Assembly: GCA_964617045.1 (NCBI GenBank)
Contig: CAZTVZ010000001.1
Span: 136,763 to 200,762, forward strand
Length of the DNA: 64,000 nucleotides
Reading direction: 5' to 3'
Origin: an uncultured Gammaproteobacteria bacterium
GTDB taxonomy: Bacteria; Patescibacteriota; Microgenomatia; UBA8517
Shown here: one piece after another, positions 21,082 through 64,000 of the stretch
How positions within the stretch are numbered: the first letter of the stretch is position 1
Layout: the number at the start of each line of letters is the position of its first letter
Made by a program: the position numbers and the translations under genes
The notes under the pieces: generated by a model
Told to the model about the DNA's origin: nothing
The model's input: the letters and a program-made list of their open reading frames with translations, nothing else
Databases searched by the model: none

Positions 21082-21112
21082 AGATTACAAGACTGTTACG
21101 GTTTTTAATAAA

Positions 21113-43951: not shown

Positions 43952-44665
43952 ATGACGCATACCAAAAACATTGTGATTCTTCATGGCTGGGGTTCTTCTG
44001 TCGTCAAGTTCGAACCTCTGGCGGCAAATCTAAAAAAGACAGGCTGGAAAGTTCTAACCGTTGAAATGCCAGGTTTTGACCTCAAGGCTCCTCAAAAACC
44101 ATGGACACTCAATGATTATGCGGATTTCATTGTTTCCAAAGCCAGGAAACATTTCGGAAAATCAAAATACGTGCTATTCGGCCACTCTTTCGGAGCCAGG
44201 ATCGGGATAAAGATTGCATCCGAGGGTTTCCCCGAGCTGTCGGGTTTGGTTCTTTGTAGTGCACCAGGTATCTCCCGAACGGTGTCGGTTAAAAGATACG
44301 CTTTTGCAATTATTTCAAAAATCGGCAAATTGACCCTCGGTAAAAATCCCCATCCGATATTCAAAAAAATGCTTTATAAATTTGCTAGAGAACACGATTA
44401 CGAGAAAACATCCGGAGTAATGAAGCAGACAATGACCAACGTTATCTCGGAAGACTTGAAGCCTTTGGTATCCAAAATTAATATTCCCACCCTTATTCTT
44501 TGGGGCGACAAAGACACCATGACTCCACCCAAGGATGCAAAATTCATAAATAACAAAATTCCGGGATCGGTTCTAAATATTCATGACGGTTATGGCCACC
44601 GAATACCTTACGATATTCCGGAAATACTTTCCCGTGACATTGAAATTTGGTTTAAAAAATTATGA
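43952..44665 (+). CDS. Alpha/beta hydrolase fold protein
   Basis: VILHGWGSS, and the nucleophile elbow LFGHSFGARIG (GxSxG). Confidence 0.7.
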   Translation: MTHTKNIVILHGWGSSVVKFEPLAANLKKTGWKVLTVEMPGFDLKAPQKPWTLNDYADFIVSKARKHFGKSKYVLFGHSFGARIGIKIASEGFPELSGLVLCSAPGISRTVSVKRYAFAIISKIGKLTLGKNPHPIFKKMLYKFAREHDYEKTSGVMKQTMTNVISEDLKPLVSKINIPTLILWGDKDTMTPPKDAKFINNKIPGSVLNIHDGYGHRIPYDIPEILSRDIEIWFKKL

Positions 44666-47444: not shown

Positions 47445-48442
47445 CCAAAAAGGATATCTGGGAATCATTCGTACAAAAATACGAATGGTCCAATTTCCTC
47501 CAGGGGTGGGAATGGGGAGAGTTCCACGAAAGAATCGGAAACGATATCGAAAGAATTGGTTTATATGACAACAAGAAACTCGTGGGGGTAATGCTGTTTA
47601 TCGTCGAACACGCAAGAAGAGCAACCTATGCAACCGTTCCGGCAGGACCCTTACTGGACTGGAACAACAAGAAAATTCTTAAATGTTTCATCTCCTGCAT
47701 AAAAGAACTTTCTCATAAACACCACTGCTCTTTTGTCCGGGTAAGGCCACAACTTCTAAATAACGATAATAACGTAAAATTATTTGGAAAGCTTGGTTTC
47801 AAGCCCGCTCCTATGCATCTGCATGCGGAACTAACTCTCAGACTTAACCTGGAAAAAAGTGAAGAAGAGTTAATGTCCGAGATGAGGAAAAACACCAGAT
47901 ACGAAGTACGAAAAGCCGAAAAGCTGGGAATCGAGATTATTAAAAGTAACGATGCCAAAGAGATCAATAACTTTTATAAACTCCAAGAAAAAACCGCAGA
48001 ACGTAACCATTTTGTTCCTTTCTCCCTTGATTATCTGAAAAAACAATTTGAAGTATTTAAGGAAAACGACAAAGTGGCAATGTACACTGCTCATCTGGGT
48101 AAAAAGATGCTCGCAAAAGCTTTCATTATCTTTTACGGAAATGAAGCCGTATATCACTATGGTGCCAGCAGTGATCTGGGAAGAAAATATCCTGGGGCGT
48201 ATCTTCTTCTCTGGAAAATAGCACTGGAGGCAAAAGAAAAAGGTTTGAAATACTTTAATTTTTGGGGAATTACCAAGGAAGATGAAATTAACCACCGGTT
48301 TTACGGAGTATCCCTTTTTAAACGCGGTTTTGGTGGCGAAGAGATTGATTATTTACACGCAAGAGACTTCGTAATAGACAAACCCAAATACTTACTAAAT
48401 TTTATTGTCGAGAAAGTAAGAAAAAAGGTAAGAAGGCTCTAA
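47423..48442 (+). CDS. FemAB-family peptidoglycan-bridge aminoacyltransferase-like protein
   Basis: Size and GNAT-like duplicated fold signature (YHYGASSD...YLLLWKIALEAKEKGLKYFNFWGI). Confidence 0.6.
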   Translation: MVKYSQITKKDIWESFVQKYEWSNFLQGWEWGEFHERIGNDIERIGLYDNKKLVGVMLFIVEHARRATYATVPAGPLLDWNNKKILKCFISCIKELSHKHHCSFVRVRPQLLNNDNNVKLFGKLGFKPAPMHLHAELTLRLNLEKSEEELMSEMRKNTRYEVRKAEKLGIEIIKSNDAKEINNFYKLQEKTAERNHFVPFSLDYLKKQFEVFKENDKVAMYTAHLGKKMLAKAFIIFYGNEAVYHYGASSDLGRKYPGAYLLLWKIALEAKEKGLKYFNFWGITKEDEINHRFYGVSLFKRGFGGEEIDYLHARDFVIDKPKYLLNFIVEKVRKKVRRL

Positions 48443-49126: not shown

Positions 49127-50929
49127 TTACGGCACAACTTCCTTCCAGCGCATTCTTGTCTGCTGGAATATCGAAGGGAACAACTGGACAATTTCGGGGG
49201 CATAATTGAATACTTCTGCCGGAGTGAACGAATTGTCGACCAAATCCCTTTCAAGAGTTATCCCCCCGTTTGCAACCATTGATCCTCTTACAACAAGCTG
49301 AGTATCCCCCGCACCCGTTGATATTTCCGATTCAGCAAAATATATACCATCCAAGTTGGTGACAAGATCATCAATAAAGATGTACCCGCTAGTACCGGTT
49401 ACATCTTTACCCGCAGTAATCATGAAAAATCCGTTTCCGGGACTAAGGATTTCCACATTTCCGTTTAAGTATATGTTTGCCGATTCCGCAAGCACTACCA
49501 CTTTTCTGTCTCCAGATATGTCTATGTCTCCATTAATCGTAAGACTGGATAAATTGGTTCCGTCAAAATGGTAATAATAATATCCCCTGTAGAGAGTGCC
49601 TCCCGATTCAAAAACCGATCCGTCAACAACCGATGTCGATATCTCTTCGGGTACTAGGCTGTTAGGAATCTGTGAGGAAAAATACGAATAATCGATCATT
49701 TTCCCCTGGAAGGATGTGTTTGCGATCCAATTATTGGGGCTGCTGGCAGCCATACCAAGTCCGCTTCCAGAAAGAAAATCATATCCAGAAAGATATACAG
49801 CAACACCAGGATATCCACCCGGACCATTCAGTCCAAAAACAGGATTACATGTAGGTAGTGTGCACGTGCCGGGAATGTATGAATACAAATTTGCGGCAGA
49901 ATATACATCGGAATTAACAACTTGCCACCAAGCACCCGGTGTACCTACAACAACAGAAGCGGTCGAAGAACAGTTTCCACCGTCATTCATGCTCACATAT
50001 GCGCTAATTGTTGTCGTGCCAATGGAATTGGTGGTTACAGTTGAAGAATAGCTGGGAGTGTAGTCAATGGTTGGGTCTACACTGGCCACGCCGTCATTAA
50101 TAGAATCAAAAACAACGGAGTTAACGGTACCCGAAATTACATTTACAGAAGCAGTTAACATCCCCGTTGATTCCAAAGCAATGTTTTGTGTAGAAGGAAG
50201 AAGAGAAACCGAACACTGTCCAGGTGTGGTTCCCCCACCCCCATCGTCTCCACCACCTACGCAAGAAGTGCCGCAGGAAGGATCGGGATTGGAACAATTA
50301 ACACCGCAAGGATTTTCAATACTATCACAATTAGTTGTTATCCTTATTGGACGCTGGCACGGACTACATCCCAACTGACCACAACGTCCATCGGTAATAT
50401 ATTGATAAATACATCCATTAACACCCGGCGTACATGCTGAACCTGGTCTGTCGACACATGCAACATCATTGTTGCACTGAGTAACGGGATATGAATAACA
50501 ATTAGTAGTTGTTCCGGTTTTAACATAACGACAAAAAACTTCATAACTCCCACATCTATCCTGTCCACAGAAAAGAGGCGCATCCCCACATAACCACTCA
50601 CACGCTGTCGGGGTTGTGGTTGCCGTGGGTGGAGGGGTTGATGTGCTGGTGGGACATGTTGTACAGATACCCCCGTTAACAGTTTTCGTACAACCGCATG
50701 GGCATTGATTTTGCATTGTTTGTGAACAATACGGATCGATACCTCCACACATAGTATTATTGCTACATTCATCGTATGTAGATGAACAATGGGGGGGTGA
50801 AGCAACTGTTGAACAAATATTGCCAATACACACCTTGCATGGATCGGTTATTATCGCATTTACTGGTTTAACACCAATCATAATTAATCCGAAAAGGGCA
50901 ACGAAAATAATTATTAGTTTTTTAATCAT
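49127..50929 (-). CDS. Secreted Cys-rich, Gly/Thr-rich large surface protein
   Basis: Signal peptide MIKKLIIIFVALFGLIMIGVKPVNA. Roughly 40 Cys in the first ~230 aa, spaced as CxxC/CGC. Gly-rich and beta-rich remainder. Confidence 0.5.
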   Translation of the reverse strand: MIKKLIIIFVALFGLIMIGVKPVNAIITDPCKVCIGNICSTVASPPHCSSTYDECSNNTMCGGIDPYCSQTMQNQCPCGCTKTVNGGICTTCPTSTSTPPPTATTTPTACEWLCGDAPLFCGQDRCGSYEVFCRYVKTGTTTNCYSYPVTQCNNDVACVDRPGSACTPGVNGCIYQYITDGRCGQLGCSPCQRPIRITTNCDSIENPCGVNCSNPDPSCGTSCVGGGDDGGGGTTPGQCSVSLLPSTQNIALESTGMLTASVNVISGTVNSVVFDSINDGVASVDPTIDYTPSYSSTVTTNSIGTTTISAYVSMNDGGNCSSTASVVVGTPGAWWQVVNSDVYSAANLYSYIPGTCTLPTCNPVFGLNGPGGYPGVAVYLSGYDFLSGSGLGMAASSPNNWIANTSFQGKMIDYSYFSSQIPNSLVPEEISTSVVDGSVFESGGTLYRGYYYYHFDGTNLSSLTINGDIDISGDRKVVVLAESANIYLNGNVEILSPGNGFFMITAGKDVTGTSGYIFIDDLVTNLDGIYFAESEISTGAGDTQLVVRGSMVANGGITLERDLVDNSFTPAEVFNYAPEIVQLFPSIFQQTRMRWKEVVP

Positions 50930-50932
50930 CTT

Positions 50933-52450
50933 TTAGTATTCTCCTGATTTGGGGTTTTCCTTTACTACTGGGATAAATAAACTACCTGCTGCCTCTATCC
51001 CTGATTCGTCAAAAAAATATAAGTCTTCAATTTTACTTTGAGCCTCCAACGACGCCAAATTTTGTGGTTGTGTAATGTTGGCATATACTGGAGGCCATAC
51101 TATTCTTTCTTCAATCAAACGGTCAATGTCACCAGCCAAATCATACCACTTATTTTTTTCTCCTATTGTTGTAACTTCTTTTGTGTAAATTTCTAAGTTT
51201 TCCATTTTTTCTCCCACAATTCGTCTAATTACATAATGATTTTGACTATTAACGTCCCTAATTCTTAATAACAAAGAGTAGCTTTCTTTAGTTCCCGGTA
51301 AATCAACAACGCCCACGAAGTCTCCAGTTGTCATGCCTAGATAAATCCCCCTGTGAACAAGCAAGTCTCTTCCATAAACACTGGTTGTGTGGGTTTTTTC
51401 CTTCAAATACTGCACAGCCGCTGGGCTTGAATTATACCAAATACCATACATTTCCCCTTTTACGTGAATATTTCGAAATTCCAACGAACCAATATCCGGG
51501 TCACCAATGATGTTCATTATCTCCGTAATAGTTAGGATACATTTCTGCTTATCAATAGCTGTGTGTTTCAAATAGTTGAAGAATATCTCGTCTTTATCCA
51601 TTTTTTCCAATCCTTCAACTCCTTTTTCTTTTAAGTAATCCATTCTTATCTTGTCCATAAATTTCTGGAACTCCTCGTCCATACTTTGATCTTCCGGATT
51701 ATTTACAAAGTAGTTTTTGAATTTCTCCGGCCAAGAATCAATATTGTTGGGATTTCCCGTATAGATTTCCGGTGTCGGCGACGGTTCGGGTATTTCGGTG
51801 GGAGTACTTGTAGGTTCAATGGTAATCGTAGGTTTTTCTATTGTTGCTGAAGCAACCGGTTTTTCCGATGGAGGTGTTGGTTCAATTGGTTTAGCAACCA
51901 CCGGTGAACATGCAGTGAGTAACAATAAAGCAAGAGGCATTCTTTTAAAATGATCTCTTGAAAAATTTTTCCCTGAAAAAATATCAGTTAGAGTCAGGTC
52001 CCGTGCATTTCCTTTTATTTTTTGAGACGATCTCGTGAGAATATTGTGCGTTTCTTTTTCGGCTTCTTTGAGTTTTTTGCCGGCTGCAAGTTTTACCGTC
52101 CATGGTACTTCATCCATTCTTCTGACAAGTTCCAGCTTGGCAGACAATAATCCCAAACCTTCCAAAACACTGGTTGCAGGCGTGTTTTCGTCGATTTTTT
52201 CAGGCAATGGATGGTTTGTACTTAATTCATATATCGGACCTTTACCGAAATTCGTTGATATCCTGGCCTCAACTTTTCCATGTTCCTCTGGAGTCATTAG
52301 AGAAATCGTGGACAACCAGCTTTCCAAATTGTTACCCCCTCTCCCTTCTTGCTTCAATGCATTTTTTACCCCGTGAACATACATATCCATTGTGGGATAG
52401 GGATATGTATACGCTTCTTCTTGGGTTGATATTAGTCTTTCTTCTCTCAT
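50933..52450 (-). CDS. Putative lipoprotein. The lipobox LLTAC at residue ~175 suggests the true start is Met171 near 51940.
   Basis: MPLALLLLTACSPVV lipoprotein signal, then a PT-rich linker (PTPPSEKP...TPTEIPEPSPTPE). Confidence 0.45.
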   Translation of the reverse strand: MREERLISTQEEAYTYPYPTMDMYVHGVKNALKQEGRGGNNLESWLSTISLMTPEEHGKVEARISTNFGKGPIYELSTNHPLPEKIDENTPATSVLEGLGLLSAKLELVRRMDEVPWTVKLAAGKKLKEAEKETHNILTRSSQKIKGNARDLTLTDIFSGKNFSRDHFKRMPLALLLLTACSPVVAKPIEPTPPSEKPVASATIEKPTITIEPTSTPTEIPEPSPTPEIYTGNPNNIDSWPEKFKNYFVNNPEDQSMDEEFQKFMDKIRMDYLKEKGVEGLEKMDKDEIFFNYLKHTAIDKQKCILTITEIMNIIGDPDIGSLEFRNIHVKGEMYGIWYNSSPAAVQYLKEKTHTTSVYGRDLLVHRGIYLGMTTGDFVGVVDLPGTKESYSLLLRIRDVNSQNHYVIRRIVGEKMENLEIYTKEVTTIGEKNKWYDLAGDIDRLIEERIVWPPVYANITQPQNLASLEAQSKIEDLYFFDESGIEAAGSLFIPVVKENPKSGEY

Positions 52451-52454
52451 CGGT

Positions 52455-53276
52455 TTATTCCAGCACTCCTACTGCAGTGGCAAAAATGTGATATTTCGGA
52501 TCATCCAATACTGCCCAGTTTCCTTCAAAAAGTTCCTTCGTCTTTCCCAGATACCATGTTTCATAAGAATTTAATTGTGTAAGCCCAAAACCAACCCACG
52601 CTTCCATAATAGTACCTGGCTTTAATTTGCTCACTACCGTTTCAAGATCGTTAAACACATATTTGGGATGTGTATTAAAACTATCCTCATATGAATAGAA
52701 TGGCATACCCGTCGGTGCTTCTTTGGTGGTTGCCAACATTATTCTCATTTTTCTCTGTTGTGCATCACCGTTAATTACAAACTCGCTTTCGTAATTATTC
52801 AGATCGTTAAATCGGAATTCTTTTATTAGAGTACCCGATATCTTGTAGAATCCTCCCTCACTTTTTATCGGAACTGTATCAATCTGTTGGGTGTTTTGGA
52901 TATTGGGAACCAGGTTTTTAATAAACTCAGTATTTTTATCCTTATACAAGAAGAAATATGTAAGGGCAGATAAGATTACCAACACTATTGCCACAATTGG
53001 TATTATCTTTTTAAGCATTCTATATAAATATATACTCTCTGCCGAGGTATATTCAAGCTCTGTGTGCTTGCCATGCTTTGTCTTAATAAATATACTTAGA
53101 TCATGGATCAGGAAAATACAAATTATCGCGTTGTCCAAACCATATCCACTCCTCCGGAAAACAAAACCAGAACATTGTTGATTATCGGTATTGCGATCAT
53201 TGTTTTGTTTGTCGCAGGTGAAGCGGGATATTATTTTTACAACAAACAAATGCTGGATAAACAACAGCAAATACAA
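52455..53276 (-). CDS. Membrane-anchored hypothetical protein. The likely start is the internal MLKKIIPIV near 53018.
   Basis: The shorter start removes an overlap with 53103..53696 and begins with a TM anchor. Confidence 0.4.
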   Translation of the reverse strand: MYLLLFIQHLFVVKIISRFTCDKQNNDRNTDNQQCSGFVFRRSGYGLDNAIICIFLIHDLSIFIKTKHGKHTELEYTSAESIYLYRMLKKIIPIVAIVLVILSALTYFFLYKDKNTEFIKNLVPNIQNTQQIDTVPIKSEGGFYKISGTLIKEFRFNDLNNYESEFVINGDAQQRKMRIMLATTKEAPTGMPFYSYEDSFNTHPKYVFNDLETVVSKLKPGTIMEAWVGFGLTQLNSYETWYLGKTKELFEGNWAVLDDPKYHIFATAVGVLE

Positions 53277-53696
53277 GAGGATGCCAATGAAGAATCAATT
53301 TTTGCTGTTGATCAAATAGTCGATAAATCTTCGTCAATCATAGATCAAATTAATGTATCTGCAGGAAGCGGACTTCTAAAGCAGGCGAATATCGAAAGAG
53401 TGATTGCGGGTACTGTTGAGGAAATATCTGCAAGCTCTGTTGTCCTTGATAATTATGTTGGTAAAACCGCAATTGTAATTAGGGGGGTTGAGGGTAAATC
53501 AATGAGAATTCATTTCTCAGAATCCGAAATTCAAAAAATGAAAATTAATCAAACAAACCCGGACGGAACGCCACAACAGGTTAATATTGAGGAGATTAAT
53601 GTCGGAGACTATATAAACATATATATAAAAGACAATCTACTTAATCCCAATCTTGATAGCGTCGTCACGATAAGCATTACCAGATCCCAACAGTAA
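53103..53696 (+). CDS. Membrane-anchored hypothetical protein
   Basis: TM segment TRTLLIIGIAIIVLFVAG. Confidence 0.4.
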   Translation: MDQENTNYRVVQTISTPPENKTRTLLIIGIAIIVLFVAGEAGYYFYNKQMLDKQQQIQEDANEESIFAVDQIVDKSSSIIDQINVSAGSGLLKQANIERVIAGTVEEISASSVVLDNYVGKTAIVIRGVEGKSMRIHFSESEIQKMKINQTNPDGTPQQVNIEEINVGDYINIYIKDNLLNPNLDSVVTISITRSQQ

Positions 53697-54731
53697 AAAG
53701 AAAAGCCACAAAAACAAAGGGATATTGTAAGTTATATCAAACATAAAAGAAGTTAATAACCCAATAATAAGAAGTTGTTTTAATTGTGGTTTTTTTTGCA
53801 CTCCAAGCAATTCTTTCGAACACATCTTTACAAAAAACAAGAATGCAAAGATCGACATAATCCCCATTCCACTTAAAAGTTCAAAAGGAATACTGTGGGT
53901 CATTTCCGAAAATCCTCCGAAAAGAGGAATGCTTTTTTCGAAAGTTTGGGATATGTATCCAAAATTACCCATTCCTATGCCGAAAATGTGTTTCGGAAAA
54001 GATACAATCGATTGAAGAATGTAAGGTCTATCAAGAAGTATTGTTCTCTGTCTCGATATTGCTACAAACAATATTGCTGTTATCAACAATATAACCAATG
54101 TTGAGATAATTTTTGACCTATTTTTGAACCTTGAAAGGAAGTAGATAAATACAGGTACCAAAAGCGAGACAACGGCCGTTCTTGAGCCAGAAATGTAAAT
54201 CGTCAACAAGCCAATGGCAATGGCTGATAAAAGTATTATTTTATTCTTAATAGATATTCCCCTGCCCATTGCAAAGATTGGTATTAAAAGGGTTATGCTC
54301 CACAAATCCCCCAGATGGTGGTGTTTGGAGTTCATTGGCGCAATTAATCCCAAATGGGTATTCCGAATTATTCCCCAATTATTTTGGACGTATGCAAGTA
54401 GCGTGTAAAGTGTAGTCAGAATTACAATCAACCTCACCATTTTTAACGAAGATTCGTTAGAGGAATATATCCACAATAATATTCCGGAAAGAAAAAGACA
54501 GAAAACATTAAACGAATTAGATAAATTGACCGACCAAATCATGCTAATTGCTAGAGAAAAAAGAAACAGTGCCGACAAACCAATGTGTTTTGGTAATAAT
54601 ATTTTCCCGTTTTTAATATAGACCGAAAAAAGAAGCATTAAGGAAAGAATAATGACTAAATATATTGTCTCGTTAACATAGATTCCAATGCCGCCCAGAA
54701 GAAGTATCAAAAATACCGAAATATTTATCAT
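53637..54731 (-). CDS. O-antigen ligase/Wzy-like polytopic membrane protein
   Basis: About 10 TM helices. Located in a glycan-biosynthesis context. Confidence 0.45.
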   Translation of the reverse strand: MINISVFLILLLGGIGIYVNETIYLVIILSLMLLFSVYIKNGKILLPKHIGLSALFLFSLAISMIWSVNLSNSFNVFCLFLSGILLWIYSSNESSLKMVRLIVILTTLYTLLAYVQNNWGIIRNTHLGLIAPMNSKHHHLGDLWSITLLIPIFAMGRGISIKNKIILLSAIAIGLLTIYISGSRTAVVSLLVPVFIYFLSRFKNRSKIISTLVILLITAILFVAISRQRTILLDRPYILQSIVSFPKHIFGIGMGNFGYISQTFEKSIPLFGGFSEMTHSIPFELLSGMGIMSIFAFLFFVKMCSKELLGVQKKPQLKQLLIIGLLTSFMFDITYNIPLFLWLFFLLLGSGNAYRDDAIKIGIK

Positions 54732-54737: not shown

Positions 54738-56012
54738 TTGACTACCTACCCAGTTGTAGTATATTTTAATAATAGGATATGGAAAAGAAAAAGAAGTATA
54801 ATAGCCCTAAAATTAAGACCTCAAAAGTTCAACCTATACATTTCTATGGCAAAAACACTTCCACATCAAATTACGAAAACGCAGAGTTCCTCCTTGCATC
54901 ACCAACTTCAATATTCTAACAACATCTCTTTCGGTCTAAGCATGCTTCCTCTTTTTGACCAGAATTCTGTTCTTGAAATTGTAAAGGCAAAAAAATATAA
55001 AATTGACGACATCGTCGTATTTAAAAAAAGAAATCGATTAATCGCTCACCGGTTAATATACATTCCGAAATCGCGCAAATTTTTTATTACAAAAGGCGAC
55101 AACAATCTTCGAAGCGACGGTAAAATATTGCCTGACATGATCCTTGGAAAAGTAAAAAGTGTTAAGGGCAAAACTAAAAATAGCGAAATAGAATCTTTTT
55201 ATCTAACACAATCGCTTCTCTACATGCACCATATTGTTCGCTTTACCGATTTTCTTAACAAGAACAAGATTCCCTACATAATACTCAAAGGTTTACCGAT
55301 ACACCTACGCTACGAAGGTAAAATTCCCAATCGAATATATTTTGACGTGGATTTCTTGATAAATAAAAATTGCTTACGTATTGTTGATAAATATCTCAAA
55401 ACAAATGGTTTTAAAAAAGGCAATGACGGCAAAGACAAAAAGATTAGTGGCGTTCAGCATACCTACATCAATACAAATAAATCCTTTGGCGTTAATTTTG
55501 ATATTCATATTAGTCCGGTTCGGATTTATCGCAAGCTAAATTTATTAAATGTATTTGTTCCTGACAAAGTAAAGATTTCCAATATGCTTTGGGAAGGGTC
55601 GGAAAAGCTTAAAATTTCGGACAAGGAATACACTGTCTTAAATAAAGATACTCAAATTGTTTACCTTCTTCTGCATTTTTTCCAACACAATATGGAGGGA
55701 ATACATCGACTTAATTTTATAAACAATATTGTTACCAAGGGTTCCCGCCCCAACTGGAATCAAATTGCACGAATGATGATAAAGTATTCTCTTTTTTCGC
55801 TATGTTATCCGCCCTTAAAAATGTTGGAAAAATATTATGGTTTTTGTGCTCCTCGAAAGTTTTTTTCATTCTTTAAGAGTTACGAATATTTCAAATTCGT
55901 GGGAAATATAATATCCAGATTTTCCAATCCGTTTAACTCAAGCGGTAGATATTTTTCGCTTGCAAAAAGAATGTTTTATTCGATTATTTGCTCACCAATT
56001 TTTTACCGATAA
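54738..56012 (+). CDS. Fusion protein: N-terminal Sec11/SipW-type (Ser/His) S26 signal-peptidase-like domain plus a minimal nucleotidyltransferase-like domain
   Basis: All four S26 boxes are present: LSMLPLF (box B Ser), DDIVVF (box C), LIAHRLIYI (box D, with His replacing Lys), TKGDNNLRSDGK (box E, GDNRxxSxDSR-like). Downstream, ILKGLPIHLRYEGKIPNRIYFDVDFLI matches the G[GS]x9-13DxD nucleotidyltransferase motif. Confidence 0.5.
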   Translation: MTTYPVVVYFNNRIWKRKRSIIALKLRPQKFNLYISMAKTLPHQITKTQSSSLHHQLQYSNNISFGLSMLPLFDQNSVLEIVKAKKYKIDDIVVFKKRNRLIAHRLIYIPKSRKFFITKGDNNLRSDGKILPDMILGKVKSVKGKTKNSEIESFYLTQSLLYMHHIVRFTDFLNKNKIPYIILKGLPIHLRYEGKIPNRIYFDVDFLINKNCLRIVDKYLKTNGFKKGNDGKDKKISGVQHTYINTNKSFGVNFDIHISPVRIYRKLNLLNVFVPDKVKISNMLWEGSEKLKISDKEYTVLNKDTQIVYLLLHFFQHNMEGIHRLNFINNIVTKGSRPNWNQIARMMIKYSLFSLCYPPLKMLEKYYGFCAPRKFFSFFKSYEYFKFVGNIISRFSNPFNSSGRYFSLAKRMFYSIICSPIFYR

Positions 56013-56238
56013 GAATTTCGATATATTTTCCCAGATCATCAGAAGCTTTCTTTCTGTCGACATCATATTTTTCAATTATGTTATCGATAATTTGTTTTAC
56101 TGATTTTTTCTTCTCAATTTCTTCCAAAATAAAATATCCAATTTCGTTAAGTTCGTGCAATTGCTGATTGGAGTTATCATAGGCAACATACGCATTCCCC
56201 AGTTTGTTGATAATTATATCTTTGTTCAGTTTATACAT
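55984..56238 (-). CDS. PqqD-family protein (RiPP recognition element-like)
   Basis: LHELNEIGYFILEEIEKKKSVKQIIDNIIEKYDVDRKKASDDLGKYIEILIGKKLV matches the PqqD pattern closely. 84 aa. Confidence 0.7.
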   Translation of the reverse strand: MYKLNKDIIINKLGNAYVAYDNSNQQLHELNEIGYFILEEIEKKKSVKQIIDNIIEKYDVDRKKASDDLGKYIEILIGKKLVSK

Positions 56239-57008
56239 TTTACTAATTCCTTATGAATTTCTCTTGGTTTCAAATTGACAAACAAATCATACATTTTTGC
56301 TTTTGACGACAAATCCATGATATTCGACAAAGTCGTTTTATCAAGGTTGCCGTTTGGAGTCCATAAGGAATCAGCAATATTCTTTACCTCTACAAATTGA
56401 TCACTGATTATTTTTGATTGGCACTTTTTGCTTTTATGTATTCGCAACAAGACAATTTTACTTGAATGTTTTTTAACAGGATACTTAGTTTTTTCCAAGA
56501 AAGGTGTTGAATATATGGTCCAAAAACCATTGATCTTTCGGAGGATAACCGCGTCGTCAGCGATAATATTGTAACCAATCTTATGCAAATTTTTTGCAAT
56601 AGTAGATTTCCCACCACCAGATTTTGCAATAAAGACATATGCATTTCCATTTCTATTCATTACCGCAGATGCATGAAACAACAGCGAATCAGATCTTTGC
56701 TTCTCCAGGAGAATATCTCTAAGTATCAAATCGATATCCAAGGCGGAAGATGAATATGCAAGTTCATATTTGTTTCCCAGTTTACGATATTTATTAAGAT
56801 AATAATCATTATTTTTGCGGAATATTTTATATGCGAAATCTCTTACAACGATCGTCTTATCTATTTTCTTCTTATTGATCTTGAATTTACCCCAATACTT
56901 ATTGAGATTATTAATAAATATTTCTTGTTCAACAACATTCTTCGTTGTTTTTAGGCTAAATTGAATCACTACTCCAGCTATCTCAAAATATATATTACCA
57001 ATTTTCAT
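56226..57008 (-). CDS. HPr kinase/phosphorylase C-terminal-domain-like kinase
   Basis: LLFHASAVMNRNGNAYVFIAKSGGGKSTIAKNL...IIADDAVIL matches the HprK P-loop region. Confidence 0.65.
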   Translation of the reverse strand: MKIGNIYFEIAGVVIQFSLKTTKNVVEQEIFINNLNKYWGKFKINKKKIDKTIVVRDFAYKIFRKNNDYYLNKYRKLGNKYELAYSSSALDIDLILRDILLEKQRSDSLLFHASAVMNRNGNAYVFIAKSGGGKSTIAKNLHKIGYNIIADDAVILRKINGFWTIYSTPFLEKTKYPVKKHSSKIVLLRIHKSKKCQSKIISDQFVEVKNIADSLWTPNGNLDKTTLSNIMDLSSKAKMYDLFVNLKPREIHKELVKCIN

Positions 57009-58107
57009 TAATTATTTTGCAAACATCATTGATACTTTTATTGGTTAAAGTGCTATATGAAGGTAACAATAACCCTTTTTCAAAAAAATGTTCCGCATTT
57101 GGATATTTTTCTTTTTTATAATCTTCTTCATATAATTTTTGCAGATGCACAGGCCTAAAGAATCTTCTATTGTCTACTCCATTTTGTGTTAACAGTCTTT
57201 CCATTTTTTCTCTTTTTGTCTGATTATCAAATAATACTGCAGGGAACCAGTAATTGGGGTTTTGGGATTTTATCGGCTGGATAAAGCTGATTCCTTCAAC
57301 AAGCAGTTTCTTTTCCCACTCCCGATATACTCTTTTTCGCTCGGACAGGAGATGTTTAAATTTATTAAGCTGTGATAATCCCAATGCGGCTTGCAAACCC
57401 GTCATAACCAAGTTATATGCCATCATCTTATGGCTAAAGTGTTCTTCCTTATTAAAGTCGAAGAACGATATTTTCTTAATTTTATTTATGTAATCTTCAT
57501 TATTACTTGCGACAAACCCTCCGTTACCTGTCGTAATTATTTTATTAGCATATAAAGAAAAGCACGAAAGATCACCAAGGCTTCCCAATTTCGAACCTTT
57601 ATACTTTGATCCCATTGCTTCTGCCGCATCTTCGATCACAAATATATTATTAGATTTTGCAATTTTGGTAATTTCATCCATAGCGCAAGGATAACCATAA
57701 AGATGTACGGGAATAACTGCTTTCGTTTTTTTTGAAATCTTTTTTTGAAATTCATCTACGGACATATTCCAATCATTTTTGGATGTTGAATCAATAAGCA
57801 CCGGCGTAGCACCGGTCCACTTTACCGCATTGACAGTTGCTATCATCGTCAATGTCGGAATTATCACTTCGTCACCTTGTCCTATTCCCAAAGATTTCAG
57901 TGCTAAAAATATTGCGGAGGTTCCGCTATTAACTGCAGCTCCATGTTTTGTACCTGCGACCAAAGAAGAAAATCTTTTTTCGAATTTTGCGACGTAAGGA
58001 GATTTGCTGCTAATCCATGATGAATCGAAACATTTTAGAATCTCTCTTCTATCCTCTCGGGTTAAAGTCGGTTTGGATATTGGAATATTAAACTTTTTCA
58101 TCTCCAA
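56995..58107 (-). CDS. DegT/DnrJ/EryC1/StrS-family sugar aminotransferase
   Basis: VIEDAAEAMGS, and SFYANKIITTGNGG (SxxxNK). Confidence 0.8.
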   Translation of the reverse strand: MEMKKFNIPISKPTLTREDRREILKCFDSSWISSKSPYVAKFEKRFSSLVAGTKHGAAVNSGTSAIFLALKSLGIGQGDEVIIPTLTMIATVNAVKWTGATPVLIDSTSKNDWNMSVDEFQKKISKKTKAVIPVHLYGYPCAMDEITKIAKSNNIFVIEDAAEAMGSKYKGSKLGSLGDLSCFSLYANKIITTGNGGFVASNNEDYINKIKKISFFDFNKEEHFSHKMMAYNLVMTGLQAALGLSQLNKFKHLLSERKRVYREWEKKLLVEGISFIQPIKSQNPNYWFPAVLFDNQTKREKMERLLTQNGVDNRRFFRPVHLQKLYEEDYKKEKYPNAEHFFEKGLLLPSYSTLTNKSINDVCKIINENW

Positions 58108-58789
58108 TATTTAATGCCAATTTAATAGAAATTCCAATGTAGTTAACAAACATTTTTATTAAATTCGATTTACTTTTCCCATACCTTCTGTCAGGAGATA
58201 CATAAGGTACTTGAGTTATCTTTCCCTTGTTTCTTTTTACACCCATCAGCATTCTGAGATGATATTCCCCGTAACCCCTATAAACATGGTCGAAATTCAA
58301 TTTTCTTAGCACTTCTTTTTTTATTACATAGAAACCGCTCATGTTGTCCATAACGGGAAATCCAAGTATCTTATTAAGCAACAAATTAAAGGAATAAGTA
58401 AAAGGATATCTTATGTTTCCTTTCATTGCTTTCCTTTGAGCAACAACCAAATCATTTTTACCGATTTTTTCAATCAATTTAGGAATAATCTGGGGAGGAT
58501 GATTAAAATCTGAGTCCATTCCCACAAGGATATCTCCCTTAGCCTTTTCCATTCCATAACGGATAGATTTTGAAAGACCCTTGTCGGTTTTTCTTATAAA
58601 TATTCTTACTCTTTTGTTATTGGCAAATTTTTTTCTTGCATGATACCCGCCCTTGTCCGGACTGTCATCATCGACAACAATAATTTCAAAATCATATCGT
58701 TTTTTTCTCAGTACAATGTTTATTTCCGAAACCAACTCTAGAATATTTTCTTTTTCGTTAAAGGTGGGTATTACTACTGATATTTTCAT
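58088..58789 (-). CDS. Family 2 glycosyltransferase (polyprenyl-phosphate sugar synthase-like)
   Basis: ISVVIPTFNEKENI, and the DxD in IIVVDDDSPD. Confidence 0.8.
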   Translation of the reverse strand: MKISVVIPTFNEKENILELVSEINIVLRKKRYDFEIIVVDDDSPDKGGYHARKKFANNKRVRIFIRKTDKGLSKSIRYGMEKAKGDILVGMDSDFNHPPQIIPKLIEKIGKNDLVVAQRKAMKGNIRYPFTYSFNLLLNKILGFPVMDNMSGFYVIKKEVLRKLNFDHVYRGYGEYHLRMLMGVKRNKGKITQVPYVSPDRRYGKSKSNLIKMFVNYIGISIKLALNIGDEKV

Positions 58790-59508
58790 TTCTTTTTAGC
58801 CAAAGCAATTATCGACGATCCCCAAGGAAAGTCAAACCATTTTAGAATATATGCTTCAATTCGCAATAGGAACAACAACAAAATATTTATTGCTGGAATT
58901 ACTTCTTCTACATCCGATCCTTTTGCAACAAACTTATCCAAGACCACTCTTCTTAAAAACACGAGCGGGAATATGAAAAAATATATATATGAAATACGAA
59001 TGACCTGAAAGCCAGATTGTTCAAGCATTGTTCGCATCTCCAAACTCGAAAATCTTCTTACCCCTCCCAAATGCAAATCGTGAGAACTGTATAGACATGA
59101 CATTGCAGAATCGGTAACCAGTATATATCCTCCTTTTTTAATAATTGCTGCAACATTTTTAACTACCTTTTTTGGATCCGGTATATTTTTGTGATACAGA
59201 ACGTCGAACAAGGTAACCAAATCATATTTGTCTTTTATGCCGGACGTTTTATTCGCATCTCCAAGTCTAACTTTTATTTTTCTTTTCAGAGAGTATTTCA
59301 CAGCGCTTATGTCACTATCGATTCCTTCAACAACTCCGTATTTTGAAAGATGTTGAGTCATTCCACCCGTACCACATCCAACATCTAATATCTTTGAAAC
59401 GGAACCTTGGATTGGGTTAATAAATACATCAGCAAACGATCTTTTTGCCAAAAACCAAAAATGTTTGTTTTCGAGAGAAAACATTTTTACGTATTCGTTT
59501 TTATTCAT
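58786..59508 (-). CDS. Class I SAM-dependent methyltransferase
   Basis: Motif I ILDVGCGTGGMTQHL. Motif post-I VEGIDSD. Confidence 0.75.
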   Translation of the reverse strand: MNKNEYVKMFSLENKHFWFLAKRSFADVFINPIQGSVSKILDVGCGTGGMTQHLSKYGVVEGIDSDISAVKYSLKRKIKVRLGDANKTSGIKDKYDLVTLFDVLYHKNIPDPKKVVKNVAAIIKKGGYILVTDSAMSCLYSSHDLHLGGVRRFSSLEMRTMLEQSGFQVIRISYIYFFIFPLVFLRRVVLDKFVAKGSDVEEVIPAINILLLFLLRIEAYILKWFDFPWGSSIIALAKKK

Positions 59509-59509
59509 A

Positions 59510-61396
59510 TTATTTTTTTATTATTCGAAAAATTATTTCACCCGGTAAAACCACCGGGGGGATAGCCACGTACTTAGATTCATCTTGAATCAAATAATAT
59601 CTGCCTTCACCAAAGAATCTGCCATAACATTTTGTATTGTTCTCAATTATTACCTGAGTCTCTTTGCTCGATATTTTCTTGGTAAGAATATCAAGTTTAT
59701 CAGCTTCGGTAAAATAGCAGTTAGAATCTTTTTCTTTTGAAAAATCATATATTGCCCATCTTTTATCGGACCACACAAGACTACCACGGTATTTTTCCGC
59801 TATCTGAGACGCAAAATTCGGTTTATAAAAATAATCCAAAACAAGCAATTCGATATTTAGTGCCCTTACATAATTCTTCCAACCCGGATCATCAACAGAA
59901 TCCAATCTTGAGTTTTGGATGTGCATATCTTCAAAAACAGTACCCGTATATCCATTAACCAAAACGAAATCTTTTTGCATCGACATAATCATGTATTCGG
60001 TATTTGCAGCATTGCTTTCGTTTGTCGGTAGAAATGCAACATTTTTTTTGGACATATCGTAATTCGGAAATGATTGCGAATACTTGGGCATGTAATAAAT
60101 GTTTACAGTTTCAGCTCCGACGAGCAAAATAACAATAAGGGTGAACAGATTCTTCATCGATCTGTTCCTTATTTTATTGAACATCTTTTCATATGCGGAA
60201 CCAGCGATTAAGGCAATAAAAATAATTCCTACCAGCATTATTCTTCCCGGAGTTCTTGTTAACGACAATGTTGGGAAGATTTGAAATAGATAGTAGAAAG
60301 GCAGCTTTATGTTTTCATCATTTAGATTTAAAAATGGACCCAGGGAAATAATCATCGCAAAAAATGAAGAAATAACCCAAGCCCAATGTATTTTCTTCTT
60401 ACGAAGCAAAAACAAGAAAATAAGAGATAGCACGGTTGCTATTACCCCAGAAGATAAGGTCATTTCCAAACGATGCTTAAGCGTGTAGTCTAATCCAAAC
60501 AGATTAAATACTTTTTGTACTGTCAAATAGTAAATTCCGTTTGGGTTGCCTTCCAAATAACCAAAAACATTTCCGGAGTGATTTGCAGCCTCTTCGATTG
60601 AACGAGAGTAGTTTTCTTTTATCGAATAATCGCGATATGAGTCAAATATTTTTAATATGGGGAACAACGACAAAAACAAAATAACCAAAGATAAGACTAT
60701 TTGCCTAAGGTATTCTGTCTTCCCGCTTTTCTTAAGCTTTTCGAAAAATAAAAACATTCCGTAAGGGAACAACAAAATGAAGCTAAATAATGTTAATTGC
60801 ATATTATTTAATGCGTTAAGAACAACGATGCCGGCTAAGATAAGGGAATTTTTATTTCCCGGCTGTTCAATTATTTTGTGGATTAGAACAAGCAGGGGGG
60901 GTATAAAAATCCGAGACAGATACTCCATATGTCCCGGAAATCTAATCGTTACTAAGGGCGCGAAAGAAAAAATTACAGCCGCAATCAAGACAGCAATCTT
61001 ATTTTTTAGAAAATATTTGAATGAATAATAACTGCTTACAAAGGTTAAAACGAAAGATAACAATATTTTTATATTTGTAGAGAAAGCGACATTGTTGGTC
61101 AAATAATACGGTATTCCAAAAAGAACGAGTGATTGGAATGGTTGAAAATCGAATAAGGCAAGAATATTGGGAAAAGGATAGTGAATCGGAGGGCTAAACA
61201 GGGTCGAGTAACTTCCCGAAGTAATTTTCGAGAACACATACCACAAAGTCCAAGCATTTGATTCAAAATCTTCCCTTGGAAAATATACATTCGACAACTC
61301 TCTCATAAAAGGATAGGTTGCAAAATAAGTAAGAATAAGTGCCATTACGATTACCAGCAAAAATTCCGATACGATTTTATTAATTTTGTTTTTCAT
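59510..61396 (-). CDS. Large polytopic membrane protein, possibly a GT-C/YfhO-like glycosyltransferase
   Basis: About 12-14 TM helices with a soluble C-terminal domain. The context supports glycan assembly. No catalytic motif identified. Confidence 0.4.
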   Translation of the reverse strand: MKNKINKIVSEFLLVIVMALILTYFATYPFMRELSNVYFPREDFESNAWTLWYVFSKITSGSYSTLFSPPIHYPFPNILALFDFQPFQSLVLFGIPYYLTNNVAFSTNIKILLSFVLTFVSSYYSFKYFLKNKIAVLIAAVIFSFAPLVTIRFPGHMEYLSRIFIPPLLVLIHKIIEQPGNKNSLILAGIVVLNALNNMQLTLFSFILLFPYGMFLFFEKLKKSGKTEYLRQIVLSLVILFLSLFPILKIFDSYRDYSIKENYSRSIEEAANHSGNVFGYLEGNPNGIYYLTVQKVFNLFGLDYTLKHRLEMTLSSGVIATVLSLIFLFLLRKKKIHWAWVISSFFAMIISLGPFLNLNDENIKLPFYYLFQIFPTLSLTRTPGRIMLVGIIFIALIAGSAYEKMFNKIRNRSMKNLFTLIVILLVGAETVNIYYMPKYSQSFPNYDMSKKNVAFLPTNESNAANTEYMIMSMQKDFVLVNGYTGTVFEDMHIQNSRLDSVDDPGWKNYVRALNIELLVLDYFYKPNFASQIAEKYRGSLVWSDKRWAIYDFSKEKDSNCYFTEADKLDILTKKISSKETQVIIENNTKCYGRFFGEGRYYLIQDESKYVAIPPVVLPGEIIFRIIKK

Positions 61397-63368
61397 TTAT
61401 TTCGTTCCAAAAATTGATATTACATTTCAAATCAATAATATTCGAGAAATTGATACAGCAGGAAGAAGGTGTTTTAGTATCTACTATCTCAGTTTTATTG
61501 ACCTTCTCGCTATCCACAACGAACGGCAAATAATAATATCTGAAAACGAACTGCTGTGAATAACTGGATGCATCGATATCTTCTCCCGCAAAATGTATTT
61601 GAGTACAACCTCTTTTCTGCAAATCGACAAAACCATTCAAAAATTGATGATAATTCCGAGAATCAATATAGCCCCATCTTATATCCTCAAATCCCGATTC
61701 GTTATTTGCATTCCGAAATACACTTGCTGTTAACATCAAGACAATTAATACGATCGTAATTAATTTAACAATCAATTTAATTCCCGGGCTTCCAACAATT
61801 ATCGATATCATAAAGATAATTCCCAAATGGGCTATACCAAAAGTCCTTTCAACAAAAATGCAGGGGAAAATAATTGAAAAAACTGTCAAGCCAATCGTAC
61901 TTGCGATAAAAAGTCCATAACCGATCCAATAACCCAGGTTAGTTTTATCTTCCAACTTTTTCGCAACAAAAAAAGGAGATAAAAGCAGTAAAGCAGCAAC
62001 CGCATACCCGAAAACTTCTTCCCTTATTCTAAAGAAACTTTCGGCAATAATTTTTTTACTTGCAAAAATGATTCCAATTTTTTCCCCGTTTACACAATTT
62101 GACATAATTCTAGATGCCGGTTCCCAGCTTGCTCGTAGATAAAACAAGTTTGGCAATAAAACAATTCCCGATAGAACCAACGAAATGAAATATGCCTTTC
62201 GAATATTTGGCTTCAAAATTAAAAAAATGAAAATCTCAAAAATAAAGAATAAAACCGCTGAGTAGTGTGTATTAAATAAAAGAAAATTCGTAAGTATAAA
62301 TTTAATCATAGTAACAAAATTGTTTGTTTTATCTGTCGCATTGATAAACGATTGAATATTTTTGATTTGATACAGAGCCAGAGCAATCAGAAGGTTGTAA
62401 GGAGATATCCAAAAATTAACATTTATAAAATACGTGGAAAGCGAATAAAGAAACAAAGCAAAATATCTTGAAAAGTTGGAGTAGTGTTTGAAAATATCAT
62501 TAATCAAATAAAACGATAAAACAAATAATAAAATTGATGAAAATCTTAACCACTGTAAGTTGTTTGATACGCTACTCCATAATTTCAAAAAAGTAATATA
62601 TCCCGAAGGGTTGTTTTCAGGAATATGTACTGTTGTTAAAAGTTCGGGCATCGAGAACCTCTTCGCGGCATCAAAAATCATTGCTTCGTCCGCCCACATT
62701 GAAATATTTAACATTGAATCAATTCTTAAGATCAATCCAACAATTAATAAAATAAAGGCCAAAACCAAAGGTGCACCTGTCACTATCCTGATCATCGAAA
62801 ATGCAATCATTTTAACTGTTCTTAAAACGATCAATGTTTTGTTTATAAAATTGAGGTTATTAATCATATCCATATCCATCTCCATCCACTGAGTAAAACT
62901 GTTGTTGTGACTTCCGGAAACAACCCACAAAGAAGTGATGCCCGGATTAACAGAGAACCGCATGGAATATTTTTTACTTATTTTTCCGGCTTCTCCGGGA
63001 GGCAAAGGTCTTGGTCCAACAAAGGACATTTCCCCTTTTATGATATTGATAAGCTGGGGTAGTTCATCCAAGCCCGTGTGGGCAAGAACCCTTCCGAATT
63101 TGGTAAAACGCGGATCGTTATATATTTTAAATACCGGACCGTCTGCTTCATTGATTTTTTCATACCTTCCCTGGTGTTTTTCTGCTCCCACGTACATGGT
63201 ACGGAATTTGATAATTTTAAATATATTTTTATTTTTCCCCAAACGTTTTTGCAGGAAAAACGGATTCGAAAAATCCTGTACCCATATCAACATCGACACC
63301 AGTACAAACAGTGGTGAAAGAAGGATCAACAACAACACTGCGATTATTTTTTCAATAACGATTTGCAT
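61380..63368 (-). CDS. Fusion: polyprenyl-phosphate hexose-1-phosphate transferase (bacterial sugar transferase domain) plus a large C-terminal GT-C-like membrane domain
   Basis: N-terminal LSPLFVLVSMLIWVQD...KFRTM...GPVFKI..DPRFTKFGRVLAHTGLDELPQLINIIKGEMSFVGPRPL matches the WbaP/WcaJ catalytic domain. It is followed by about 12 TM helices. Confidence 0.7.
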   Translation of the reverse strand: MQIVIEKIIAVLLLILLSPLFVLVSMLIWVQDFSNPFFLQKRLGKNKNIFKIIKFRTMYVGAEKHQGRYEKINEADGPVFKIYNDPRFTKFGRVLAHTGLDELPQLINIIKGEMSFVGPRPLPPGEAGKISKKYSMRFSVNPGITSLWVVSGSHNNSFTQWMEMDMDMINNLNFINKTLIVLRTVKMIAFSMIRIVTGAPLVLAFILLIVGLILRIDSMLNISMWADEAMIFDAAKRFSMPELLTTVHIPENNPSGYITFLKLWSSVSNNLQWLRFSSILLFVLSFYLINDIFKHYSNFSRYFALFLYSLSTYFINVNFWISPYNLLIALALYQIKNIQSFINATDKTNNFVTMIKFILTNFLLFNTHYSAVLFFIFEIFIFLILKPNIRKAYFISLVLSGIVLLPNLFYLRASWEPASRIMSNCVNGEKIGIIFASKKIIAESFFRIREEVFGYAVAALLLLSPFFVAKKLEDKTNLGYWIGYGLFIASTIGLTVFSIIFPCIFVERTFGIAHLGIIFMISIIVGSPGIKLIVKLITIVLIVLMLTASVFRNANNESGFEDIRWGYIDSRNYHQFLNGFVDLQKRGCTQIHFAGEDIDASSYSQQFVFRYYYLPFVVDSEKVNKTEIVDTKTPSSCCINFSNIIDLKCNINFWNEINEKQN

Positions 63369-63397: not shown

Positions 63398-64000
63398 GTG
63401 ACTAAATCAGCGGGGAATATCAAATCCAAGTTTACAATATATTTATTCATTATTATCTGCCTGTCTGTTGCCGCATTTATATTTATTAAACTTCAAGACA
63501 CCAACAAACAAGACTTATATGTAAAAGTTAAACTATCACAGGGCTATTGGTGGAGCGCAACGAGTAAACCAAATTATTGGATACCTTCAAGCATAAATTT
63601 GGGTAATTACGAAACAGACACGGGAGGAGTAATATCTGCAGAAATTATTGAAACAAGATACTATCCTTTCATTGAATATCAGGATGAAAATACAATTAGA
63701 GCCGAAACTCAATACAATGCATATGTCGTTGCAAAAATTAAAGCAACATATAACAAATCGCAAGGAAAATACTATTACAAAAGAGATAGCCTGACTATCG
63801 CCTCACCAATTGCAATTGAAACAACCAATACATTAATAAACGGAACAATTATGCAAATATCGGAATCGGAAATTCAGAATAATAGTAAAAACATTAAAGT
63901 CCTTTTGTCCAAACCAACATCTAATACCGGTACGTATGCTGTTAGGGGAGAAAAGTATTTTGACGGAACGGAAGATGTATTGGAAATCGTAAATTCATAT
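63398..64000 (+). CDS. Partial ORF (GTG start, runs off the window) encoding a membrane-anchored protein
   Basis: Manual translation is open from 63398 to the window end. N-terminal TM segment FTIYLFIIICLSVAAFIFI. No in-frame ATG until about 63851. Confidence 0.3.
   Translation, partial: MTKSAGNIKSKFTIYLFIIICLSVAAFIFIKLQDTNKQDLYVKVKLSQGYWWSATSKPNYWIPSSINLGNYETDTGGVISAEIIETRYYPFIEYQDENTIRAETQYNAYVVAKIKATYNKSQGKYYYKRDSLTIASPIAIETTNTLINGTIMQISESEIQNNSKNIKVLLSKPTSNTGTYAVRGEKYFDGTEDVLEIVNSY

Follow-up and report, generated by a model that had tools for sequence, protein, structure and literature searches.

A probable gene cluster of the linear polyphosphorylated peptide type, with a fused S26 peptidase–nucleotidyltransferase, in a Microgenomates genome

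We analysed a window of 64 kb (the whole stretch of DNA, 64,000 nucleotides of contig CAZTVZ010000001.1), with a focus on positions 54738 to 57008. A preliminary description of this interval had reported three open reading frames (ORFs), and all three exist: 54738-56012 on the plus strand (424 amino acids, aa, as first read), 55984-56238 on the minus strand, and 56226-57008, also on the minus strand. They encode a protein that joins an S26 peptidase domain to a nucleotidyltransferase, a recognition element of the kind found in pathways of peptides that are made by the ribosome and modified after translation (RiPPs), and a kinase resembling HprK. The same interval holds a small gene, at 54779-54919, that the preliminary description overlooked and that is predicted to encode a precursor peptide. 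We think that the locus is probably a RiPP gene cluster of the linear polyphosphorylated peptide (LPP) type, carried by a genome of the Microgenomates, i.e., of the candidate phyla radiation (CPR, or Patescibacteria). Its genes and sites are the following.

54738-54765, plus strand: promoter-like site, TTGACT-16 nt-TATATT, 5' of the precursor gene (consensus match).
54779-54919, plus strand: candidate precursor peptide gene, 46 aa, MEKKKKYNSPKIKTSKVQPIHFYGKNTSTSNYENAEFLLASPTSIF, absent from public gene calls (ORF search, family hidden Markov model).
54846-56012, plus strand: S26–nucleotidyltransferase fusion, LppS-LppN-like, 388 aa (start ATG 54846 of the public annotation).
54927-55187, plus strand: S26 domain of the SipW/archaeal-type signal peptidase I kind, residues ~28-114 (profiles, alignment, fold).
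54939-54941, 55047-55049 and 55116-55118, plus strand: S26 catalytic codons Ser32, His68 and Asp91.
55275-56009, plus strand: NTP_transf_5 nucleotidyltransferase domain, residues ~144-388 (PF14907, invariant columns, Foldseek).
55344-55346, 55350-55352 and 55500-55502, plus strand: codons of the transferase residues Asp167, Asp169 and Asp219, invariant together with Gly149.
55984-56238, minus strand: discrete RiPP recognition element (RRE), PqqD-like and of the lasso-B1 type, 84 aa (PF05402, E 1.8e-13).
56226-57008, minus strand: HprK-like P-loop kinase (PEPCK fold, ScmC family), 260 aa (sub-threshold profiles, fold).

The N-terminal part of the fusion matches the archaeal-type signal peptidase I family TIGR02228 (E 1.9e-12; 47.3 bits, just below the cutoff of 51.85) and SipW (NF046067, E 9e-6), and its C-terminal part matches PF14907 (NTP_transf_5) over the cutoff (E 7.2e-19). 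In an alignment of 23 homologues, the S26 boxes (SMxPL, DIVVF, AHR and KGDNN...D) are kept throughout, including the catalytic Ser and His that had first been read from this one sequence, and Gly149, Asp167, Asp169 and Asp219 of the transferase are invariant, the metal-binding Asp residues of this domain among them. The nucleotidyltransferase assignment of the preliminary description thus holds, except for the spacing between the Gly and the DxD motif, which is 17 residues and not 9-13. Several homologues are called from a Met located after the catalytic Ser. In all of these loci the codon that precedes the called start in frame nevertheless encodes Ser; the catalytic Ser is therefore under selection. 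The family is large: at E<=1e-30 it has 233 representatives (clusters at 50% identity), and among the best 150, nearly every one is a single ORF, 360-450 aa in length and matched from end to end.

The AlphaFold model of the fusion, made with the family alignment (predicted local distance difference test, pLDDT, 83.9; predicted template modelling score 0.84), has a beta-rich domain (residues 30-114), then a long helix, and then an alpha/beta domain (residues 144-388). Foldseek matched the first domain to SipA, SpsB and LexA, and the second to LnuA, MenT1 and ANT(2'')-Ia. There is no transmembrane (TM) segment in the protein, the highest 19-residue Kyte-Doolittle mean being 0.92, in agreement with the earlier statement that it lacks a membrane anchor. 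The fusion thus has in common with SipW, Sec11 and archaeal signal peptidase I (S26B) the sequence boxes, the Ser/His(/Asp) configuration and the S26/S24 fold. Unlike them, it has no anchor, is cytoplasmic, scores below the equivalog cutoffs and is joined to a transferase. We propose that its target is not a Sec signal peptide but a RiPP leader, which it would process together with an RRE. A housekeeping signal peptidase was rejected as its identity given the lack of a TM segment, the fused protein and the RRE context; the N-terminus is also short or disordered.

The 5' end of the fusion needs correction. The public annotation starts the gene at ATG 54846 (388 aa), and the first, 424-aa model is over-extended: its TTG at 54738 is part of the first (-35) hexamer of the promoter-like site, which matches 10 of 12 consensus positions and lies in a region that is nearly base-for-base identical in the relatives L025 and L026. 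We predict that this site drives the 46-aa precursor gene. The true start of the fusion is uncertain (ATG 54846 or TTG 54894), and both candidates fall within the precursor gene. Residues 1-29 of the 388-aa model overlap that gene and are disordered and poorly conserved, and many homologues begin 4-10 residues ahead of the catalytic Ser. An AGGA ahead of the precursor ATG was dropped as a Shine-Dalgarno sequence: only 1 nt separates the two, and L026 does not share it. There is a lesson here for annotation: the precursor gene is missing from the public calls, and a promoter-like site was read as coding.

The precursor gene overlaps the over-extended N-terminus of the fusion in another frame. 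In its product, a leader with a Y-x-x-P-x-I motif (YxKPxI) is followed by a segment rich in Ser and Thr, by an LLA motif and by a tail that varies. With a hidden Markov model (HMM) built from 11 such ORFs, the one at 54779-54919 scores E 1.2e-19, and nearly all related loci prove to hold a copy or two (E 1e-23 to ~1e-3). We compared the neighbourhoods of 27 loci, several of them truncated: in 17, a precursor copy directly precedes the fusion and shares its strand, and in most others one lies within ~4 kb. The consensus anchored on the Tyr is Y-x-K-P-x-I-K-x-x-K-I-x-x-x-x-F, where Y and P are invariant (25/25), I5 is present in 21/25 and F15 in 19/25, and conservation drops beyond F15. Between the window and L026, whose fusions are 80% identical, the first 24 residues of the precursor differ only by an Ile-to-Leu change; the other DNA differences in these 24 codons are synonymous, and the rest of the peptide has diverged. 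The exact 46-aa sequence is absent from a collection of 15 billion proteins, and a PDB search with the peptide gave no match. Judging from these sequence patterns, the ORF is most likely a precursor peptide and the substrate of the module.

The tails of the precursors differ between types of loci. They are very short in loci of the window type (SPTSIF in the window; VGTC, IIFS and VTIT elsewhere), and long and rich in Cys, Gly and Ser in loci where genes for YcaO and a SagB-like nitroreductase are present too. In the latter (L015, positions 7593-9933, and also L010, L016, L017, L019, L022, L023 and L024), the fusion, RRE and kinase lie beside YcaO (E 1.5e-40 in L015) and the SagB-like protein, and the precursors keep the YxKPxI leader ahead of their long cores, which often follow 'VFAQS'. 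The same leader-handling cassette thus also serves YcaO-type Cys-rich precursors, which speaks for its modularity. YcaO, the hallmark of azoline (thiazole/oxazole-modified microcin) clusters, is not in the window and is found only in related loci such as L015. Two other loci have unusual precursors. The one in L011 (1731-3794) joins a precursor-type leader (MKNKYVKPVLKK...) to a domain of the Hint/intein kind (PF14890, 4.7e-10), with a radical SAM enzyme adjoining. In L003 (200-1009), an ORF like that of the membrane protein p197 (see below) runs into a precursor-like C-terminus (...KPQIKSSKLGMIHLYNERSLRRTADSEHFLAGLAS); the peptide is separate in the near-identical L004, so that the read-through may come from a frameshift or a difference in assembly, unless the fusion is genuine.

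The genes of the RRE and of the fusion converge, and 29 nt at the 3' end of the latter are shared by both. The PqqD-family assignment of the 84-aa protein stands, and the protein also matches NCBIfam lasso and WgkC chaperone families. Searched against the PDB as a single sequence, it matched PbaB1 (9X90_B, 4.5e-6), and the profile of its family matched TbiB1 (7e-12), TfuB1 (9e-9), PbaB1 (1.6e-7) and LppB (9X8Z, 1.1e-4), so that lasso B1 proteins are its best matches among solved structures. Compared with LppB by hhalign, the RRE family gave a probability of 93.8%.

The 260-aa protein, described earlier as HprK-like, keeps this assignment. All its profile matches are sub-threshold and all are to families of the HprK type (TIGR04352, TIGR00679, TIGR04355, TIGR04249 and PF07475). 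The identity of an HPr kinase/phosphorylase proper (TIGR00679) was rejected, the match being neither full-length nor above the cutoff (22.9 bits, cutoff 240), with the P-loop/catalytic core alone aligning. A search of the PDB with the kinase alignment was swamped by generic P-loop matches, and the kinase was therefore assigned by a fold search: the top Foldseek matches of its AlphaFold model (pLDDT 89.4) are only ATP-PEPCK and HprK/P. His112, the P-loop Gly133-Lys134-(Ser)-Thr136 and Asp151 are invariant or nearly so, the homologues carry precomputed PF27840 (ScmC), and ScmC/HprK models lead the matches across 19 members of the family. The cassettes of HprK-related kinase A/ScmC (SynChlorMet) likewise place a divergent HprK-fold kinase beside a PqqD-family protein. 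They differ in that the kinase of the window scores far under their cutoffs (30 bits against 200, and 20 against 125) and that the window has no radical SAM/SPASM partners. Another joining of the parts of the module is seen in P0203, a 372-aa protein in which a kinase is fused to PqqD.

The trio forms a conserved neighbourhood, which the preliminary description had proposed to check: the three genes are together in essentially every related locus (fusion in 27, kinase in 25 and RRE in 22 of the 27). Including the precursor, all four are together in ~25 related loci, and all the named ones are from Microgenomates.

A system of similar composition, the LPPs, was described in Bacillota and is restricted to them according to that study (Popov et al., Nat Commun, 20 May 2026, PMC13381572). 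Its published core consists of the peptidase LppS, the RRE LppB, the HprK-like kinase LppK (ScmC/HprK models in the tables of the study), the NTP_transf_5 protein LppN and the MsbA-like exporter LppD, and its precursor, LppA, has the leader consensus YxxPxVLxHQxIxFETxxS (PMC13381572). LppK adds up to four phosphates to core Ser3 and rejected an S3T variant. LppS cuts after Thr-1, which is 3 residues past the conserved Phe and 3 before the phospho-Ser, requires LppB, favours the phosphorylated precursor, and is inactive as S29A, H68A or D93A, and LppN was inactive in the heterologous host (PMC13381572).

We compared the locus with the sequences of the supplement of that study. The fusion family aligns with LppS at a probability of 97.6% (hhalign, E 4.4e-12), with S29, H68 and D93 aligned to S32, H68 and D91, and the pairwise BLASTP comparison of the fusion with LppS gave 7e-8. 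In both systems the peptidase assigned to the leader is a soluble protein of the archaeal-type signal peptidase I kind, its Ser/His/Asp triad is the same, a discrete RRE is encoded beside it (22/27 loci here), and there is an HprK-like kinase (by its fold here) and an NTP_transf_5 transferase. Both also share the YxxPx[V/I] motif of the leader and, downstream of it, a conserved Phe. Both lack a cyclase and are set in polysaccharide loci. What is new here is that the counterparts of LppS and LppN are fused in one protein, that the host belongs to CPR/Microgenomates and not to Bacillota, that there is no ATP-binding cassette (ABC) exporter, and that the kinase and RRE are in a presumed operon with amino-sugar/glycan genes. 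A further difference is that a phosphoglycosyl transferase (PGT), Wzy_C and two membrane proteins of no assigned family are conserved with the CPR module.

PMC13381572 mentions neither a fusion nor CPR, and its sequence tables have no sequence with the transferase motifs. We found no earlier description of an LppS-LppN-type fusion in the literature searched, including the text and sequence tables of that study. The preliminary description had called the arrangement undescribed, which applies to the fusion (it appears undescribed) and not to the unfused module, which is the LPP system. Two other CPR peptidases are present in the supplement (OGV92686.1 and PIS09522.1): one is a standalone protein from Beckwithbacteria, 41% identical to the S26 domain of the window, and the other is a Microgenomates ABC-ATPase–S26 fusion with an adjacent RRE. 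The 233 representatives of the fusion make up a large LPP-related family in CPR/Microgenomates that extends the range of such systems beyond Bacillota.

Read as an LPP-type cluster, the locus suggests a pathway of which every chemical step is proposed by homology, the observations themselves being of gene content, active sites and conservation. The RRE would bind the 46-aa precursor via the YxKPxI leader motif, as its homology to lasso B1 proteins and LppB indicates. By comparison with LppK, PadeK and PsmK, the kinase would phosphorylate at least one Ser/Thr downstream of this motif. The soluble S26 domain (Ser32/His68/Asp91) would then remove the leader, assisted by the RRE, as proposed from LppS, where the triad is essential. 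More speculatively, the fused NTP_transf_5 domain could decorate the phosphate, most likely with a sugar in the manner of PsmN, and would probably use a sugar-nucleotide or a lipid-linked sugar provided by the glycan genes that we presume to be co-transcribed. The fusion of peptidase and transferase argues for a coupling of two steps, which would here be leader removal and phosphate decoration. This pathway retains from the preliminary description the idea of a non-lasso, peptide-modifying module (RRE, S26 cleavage, phosphorylation, nucleotidyltransferase), with the 46-aa precursor as substrate instead of the surface protein encoded nearby that was suggested there.

Two sites of leader cleavage seem compatible with the data: after FYG (residue 24) or after LLA (residue 40). 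A cut after FYG would keep the Phe(-3)...Ser/Thr(+3) register of LppA and coincide with the drop in conservation. S26 peptidases prefer a small residue at -1 and a hydrophobic one at -3. A cut after LLA, a hydrophobic-hydrophobic-Ala motif ahead of the variable tail, would fit this rule.

Several observations weigh against placing the locus among the LPP clusters. The likeness of the precursors to LppA of Bacillota is confined to YxxPx[I/V], the rest of the consensus (VLxHQxIxFETxxS) being absent, and the precursor HMM gives no significant match to LppA; in the CPR peptides, a Phe is followed 5 residues later by a frequent Ser. The peptide of the window has Thr, not Ser, where LppA has Ser3. 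The CPR RRE profile scores lasso B1 proteins above LppB, and given these scores the module may not be an LPP orthologue but the result of an independent assembly. Nowhere in the 64-kb window is there an MsbA-like exporter, which belongs to the published core (phmmer). The N-terminal helix with which LppS docks on LppB has no counterpart in the fusion, where residues 1-29 are disordered, and the docking of the RRE must therefore differ; the fused transferase domain may supply the contact surface. Finally, LppN itself showed no activity in the published heterologous system (PMC13381572). We suggest that the locus works like an LPP cluster; its strict membership is uncertain, because the exporter is absent, the leader consensus is partial and the RRE is not clearly of the LppB clade.

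The genes around the module link it to glycan synthesis. Those that are conserved or contiguous with it are the following.

53103-53696, plus strand: p197, single-pass membrane protein, conserved, no Pfam match, usually directly upstream of the precursor gene.
53637-54731, minus strand: Wzy_C (O-antigen ligase/polymerase family) membrane protein (PF04932, 5.6e-9), divergent from the precursor promoter.
56995-58107, minus strand: DegT/LegC-type aminotransferase (Pfam).
58088-58789, minus strand: GT2 (Pfam).
58786-59508, minus strand: methyltransferase (Pfam).
59510-61396, minus strand: membrane protein of 628 aa.
61380-63368, minus strand: PGT-membrane fusion (Pfam).
63398-64000, plus strand: 5' part of a gene of a membrane-anchored ~273-aa family, cut by the end of the window, divergent from the PGT gene (16 loci).

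The seven minus-strand genes from the PGT fusion to the RRE overlap or abut, with gaps of at most 1 nt (the associated genes span 56995-63368), and the same gene order is found in L005, L006 and L025. We infer from this arrangement that the PGT fusion through the kinase and RRE form one operon. In the 27 loci, Wzy_C is present in 20, the small PGT in 17, p197 in 17 by clustering (with positional equivalents in others), and the ~273-aa membrane protein in 16. The member of the latter family in L002 has no Pfam match, and nothing usable came from Pfam and PDB sequence searches with four unassigned proteins of the neighbourhood. The idea that DegT, GT2 and the 628-aa protein make up an ArnB/ArnC/ArnT-like system therefore stays a conjecture. 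The window as a whole has no ABC ATPase (phmmer), and among the related loci matches to it occur only in four of the YcaO type. The exporter of the published system thus seems replaced in CPR by the conserved PGT, Wzy_C and the two membrane proteins of no assigned family.

The uncertainty on the cleavage site leaves room for another role of the peptide, that of a scaffold or carrier. If it were cut after LLA, the product would be the tiny variable tail or a small molecule derived from it, possibly sugar-linked, which resembles the logic of PQQ (pyrroloquinoline quinone), mycofactocin or pearlin more than that of a 22-aa phosphopeptide. We regard this as improbable. In its favour, the precursors of both locus types have, with essentially no exception, a [L/F/V/Y]-[L/F/Y]-Ala motif immediately ahead of their hypervariable or Cys-rich region, LLA agrees with what S26 peptidases prefer at -1 and -3, and the stretch from FYG to LLA holds a semi-conserved (D/N)-S-E motif that would be unusual in a true core. 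Opposed to this are the F...S spacing of LppA, which is found at FYG|xxS in the CPR peptides, the conservation between the window and L026, which falls immediately past FYG, and the tail of L005, AEMC, which offers no hydroxyl to phosphorylate.

Other explanations do without an LPP-like product altogether. The trio could act on a surface protein or on the glycan itself, the small ORF being a regulator or untranslated. This would fit the tight packing of the kinase and RRE with sugar genes, the 16-20 loci in which PGT, Wzy_C and two membrane proteins are conserved alongside the trio, and the presence of conserved secreted proteins upstream. Yet RREs bind peptide leaders, and the one here resembles lasso B1 proteins; nearly every locus encodes, beside the fusion, a peptide with a cognate YxxP leader; the same module occurs in some loci with YcaO/SagB and classical Cys-rich precursors; and the HMM scan found no YxxP-type leader on the neighbouring large proteins, all of which makes such a target very unlikely. 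A lasso pathway deserves consideration because the locus combines a B1-type RRE with a [Y/W]xxPx[L/V/I] leader, and because kinase and nucleotidyltransferase are the typical tailoring enzymes of paeninodin-type clusters. In the paeninodin and pseudomycoidin systems (PadeK; PsmK/PsmN), one finds a B1-type RRE, a [Y/W]xxP leader, an HprK-like kinase, which there phosphorylates Ser, and a nucleotidyltransferase of ANT(2'')-Ia-like fold. The fold of PsmN was indeed reported to be like that of ANT(2'')-Ia, and PsmN is required to add one or two hexoses to the phosphorylated Ser (PMC6993621). The window differs from these clusters by the absence of a macrolactam synthetase, of a B2 cysteine protease and of an ABC exporter, and by the presence of an S26 serine peptidase instead. 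As already noted in the preliminary description, neither a cyclase nor a B2 protease is seen near the trio. None (Asn-synthetase-like or transglutaminase-like, respectively) was found among the scanned ORFs of the window (a set that takes in only some of the small ones, <~200 aa, lying outside the cluster), in the Pfam tables precomputed for 9 related contigs, or in the conserved families of the 27 loci. We thus rejected a lasso pathway at the locus, and one with its cyclase and B2 protease encoded elsewhere is extremely unlikely, as a dedicated peptidase is already present and the tails are too short for the lasso fold.

If the locus is of the LPP type, as we favour, its neighbourhood suggests a further, tentative extension, which we consider possible but unlikely to be right as it stands. 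The CPR module would not be a peptide pathway in its own right but would supply the peptide side of a glycoconjugate pathway, with the phosphorylated peptide as acceptor or primer for a sugar chain attached via a phosphodiester, and the fused nucleotidyltransferase, the PGT, the Wzy_C ligase-like protein and the aminosugar genes would build or attach this chain. Such a pathway would yield a ribosomal peptide-phosphoglycan that the cell displays at its surface or releases from it, with no ABC exporter involved. Were this true, it would account for the silence of LppN when expressed apart from its glycan neighbours and for the location of LPP and paeninodin clusters of Bacillota in capsule loci. 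Independently of this extension, the link to glycans recurs here in a second, distant phylum, now at the operon level, and this tie gives concrete candidates for the missing partner of LppN. The CPR module thereby bears on the end product of LPP pathways and on the role of PsmN/LppN, the latter a question since 2019.

The named genomes carrying the fusion are Roizman-, Gottesman-, Levy- and Woesebacteria and a 'Patescibacteria group'. Among 17 fusion-carrying genome records, 9 are titled 'uncultured Gammaproteobacteria bacterium' (third-party annotation metagenome-assembled genomes), including L008, L010, L013, L015, L017, L021, L022 and L024. These labels look unreliable, the gene content being CPR-like.

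Upstream of the p197 gene, the window encodes three secreted or membrane proteins without family match (49127-53276, minus strand): one of 600 aa (Cys-rich, with a signal peptide), one of 505 aa and one of 273 aa. A homologous block sits ahead of the p197 gene in L002, L005, L007, L018 and L026. Further upstream, a run on the plus strand (44662-48442) comprises a Mur-ligase-like protein, a second DegT aminotransferase and a FemAB-family transferase, which suggests peptide branching on a sugar or cell-wall precursor. Three consecutive minus-strand genes (40777-43847) encode a RimK-like ATP-grasp protein, a 'sugar-transfer associated' ATP-grasp protein with a Zn-protease-like tail, and a 7TM_transglut membrane protein, and this trio is also found near the module in L002 (560-3664). 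At the other end of the window, a large serine recombinase (13380-15014) abuts tRNA-Trp and tRNA-Thr (region 13005-15014). Downstream of it, the GC content is 0.30-0.33 (16000-24000) and an OLD-family nuclease (AAA and TOPRIM) is encoded at 21641-23488; the region may be an integrated element or a defence island. A second Wzy_C protein, with C-terminal TPR repeats, is encoded far from the cluster (6185-8167, plus strand).

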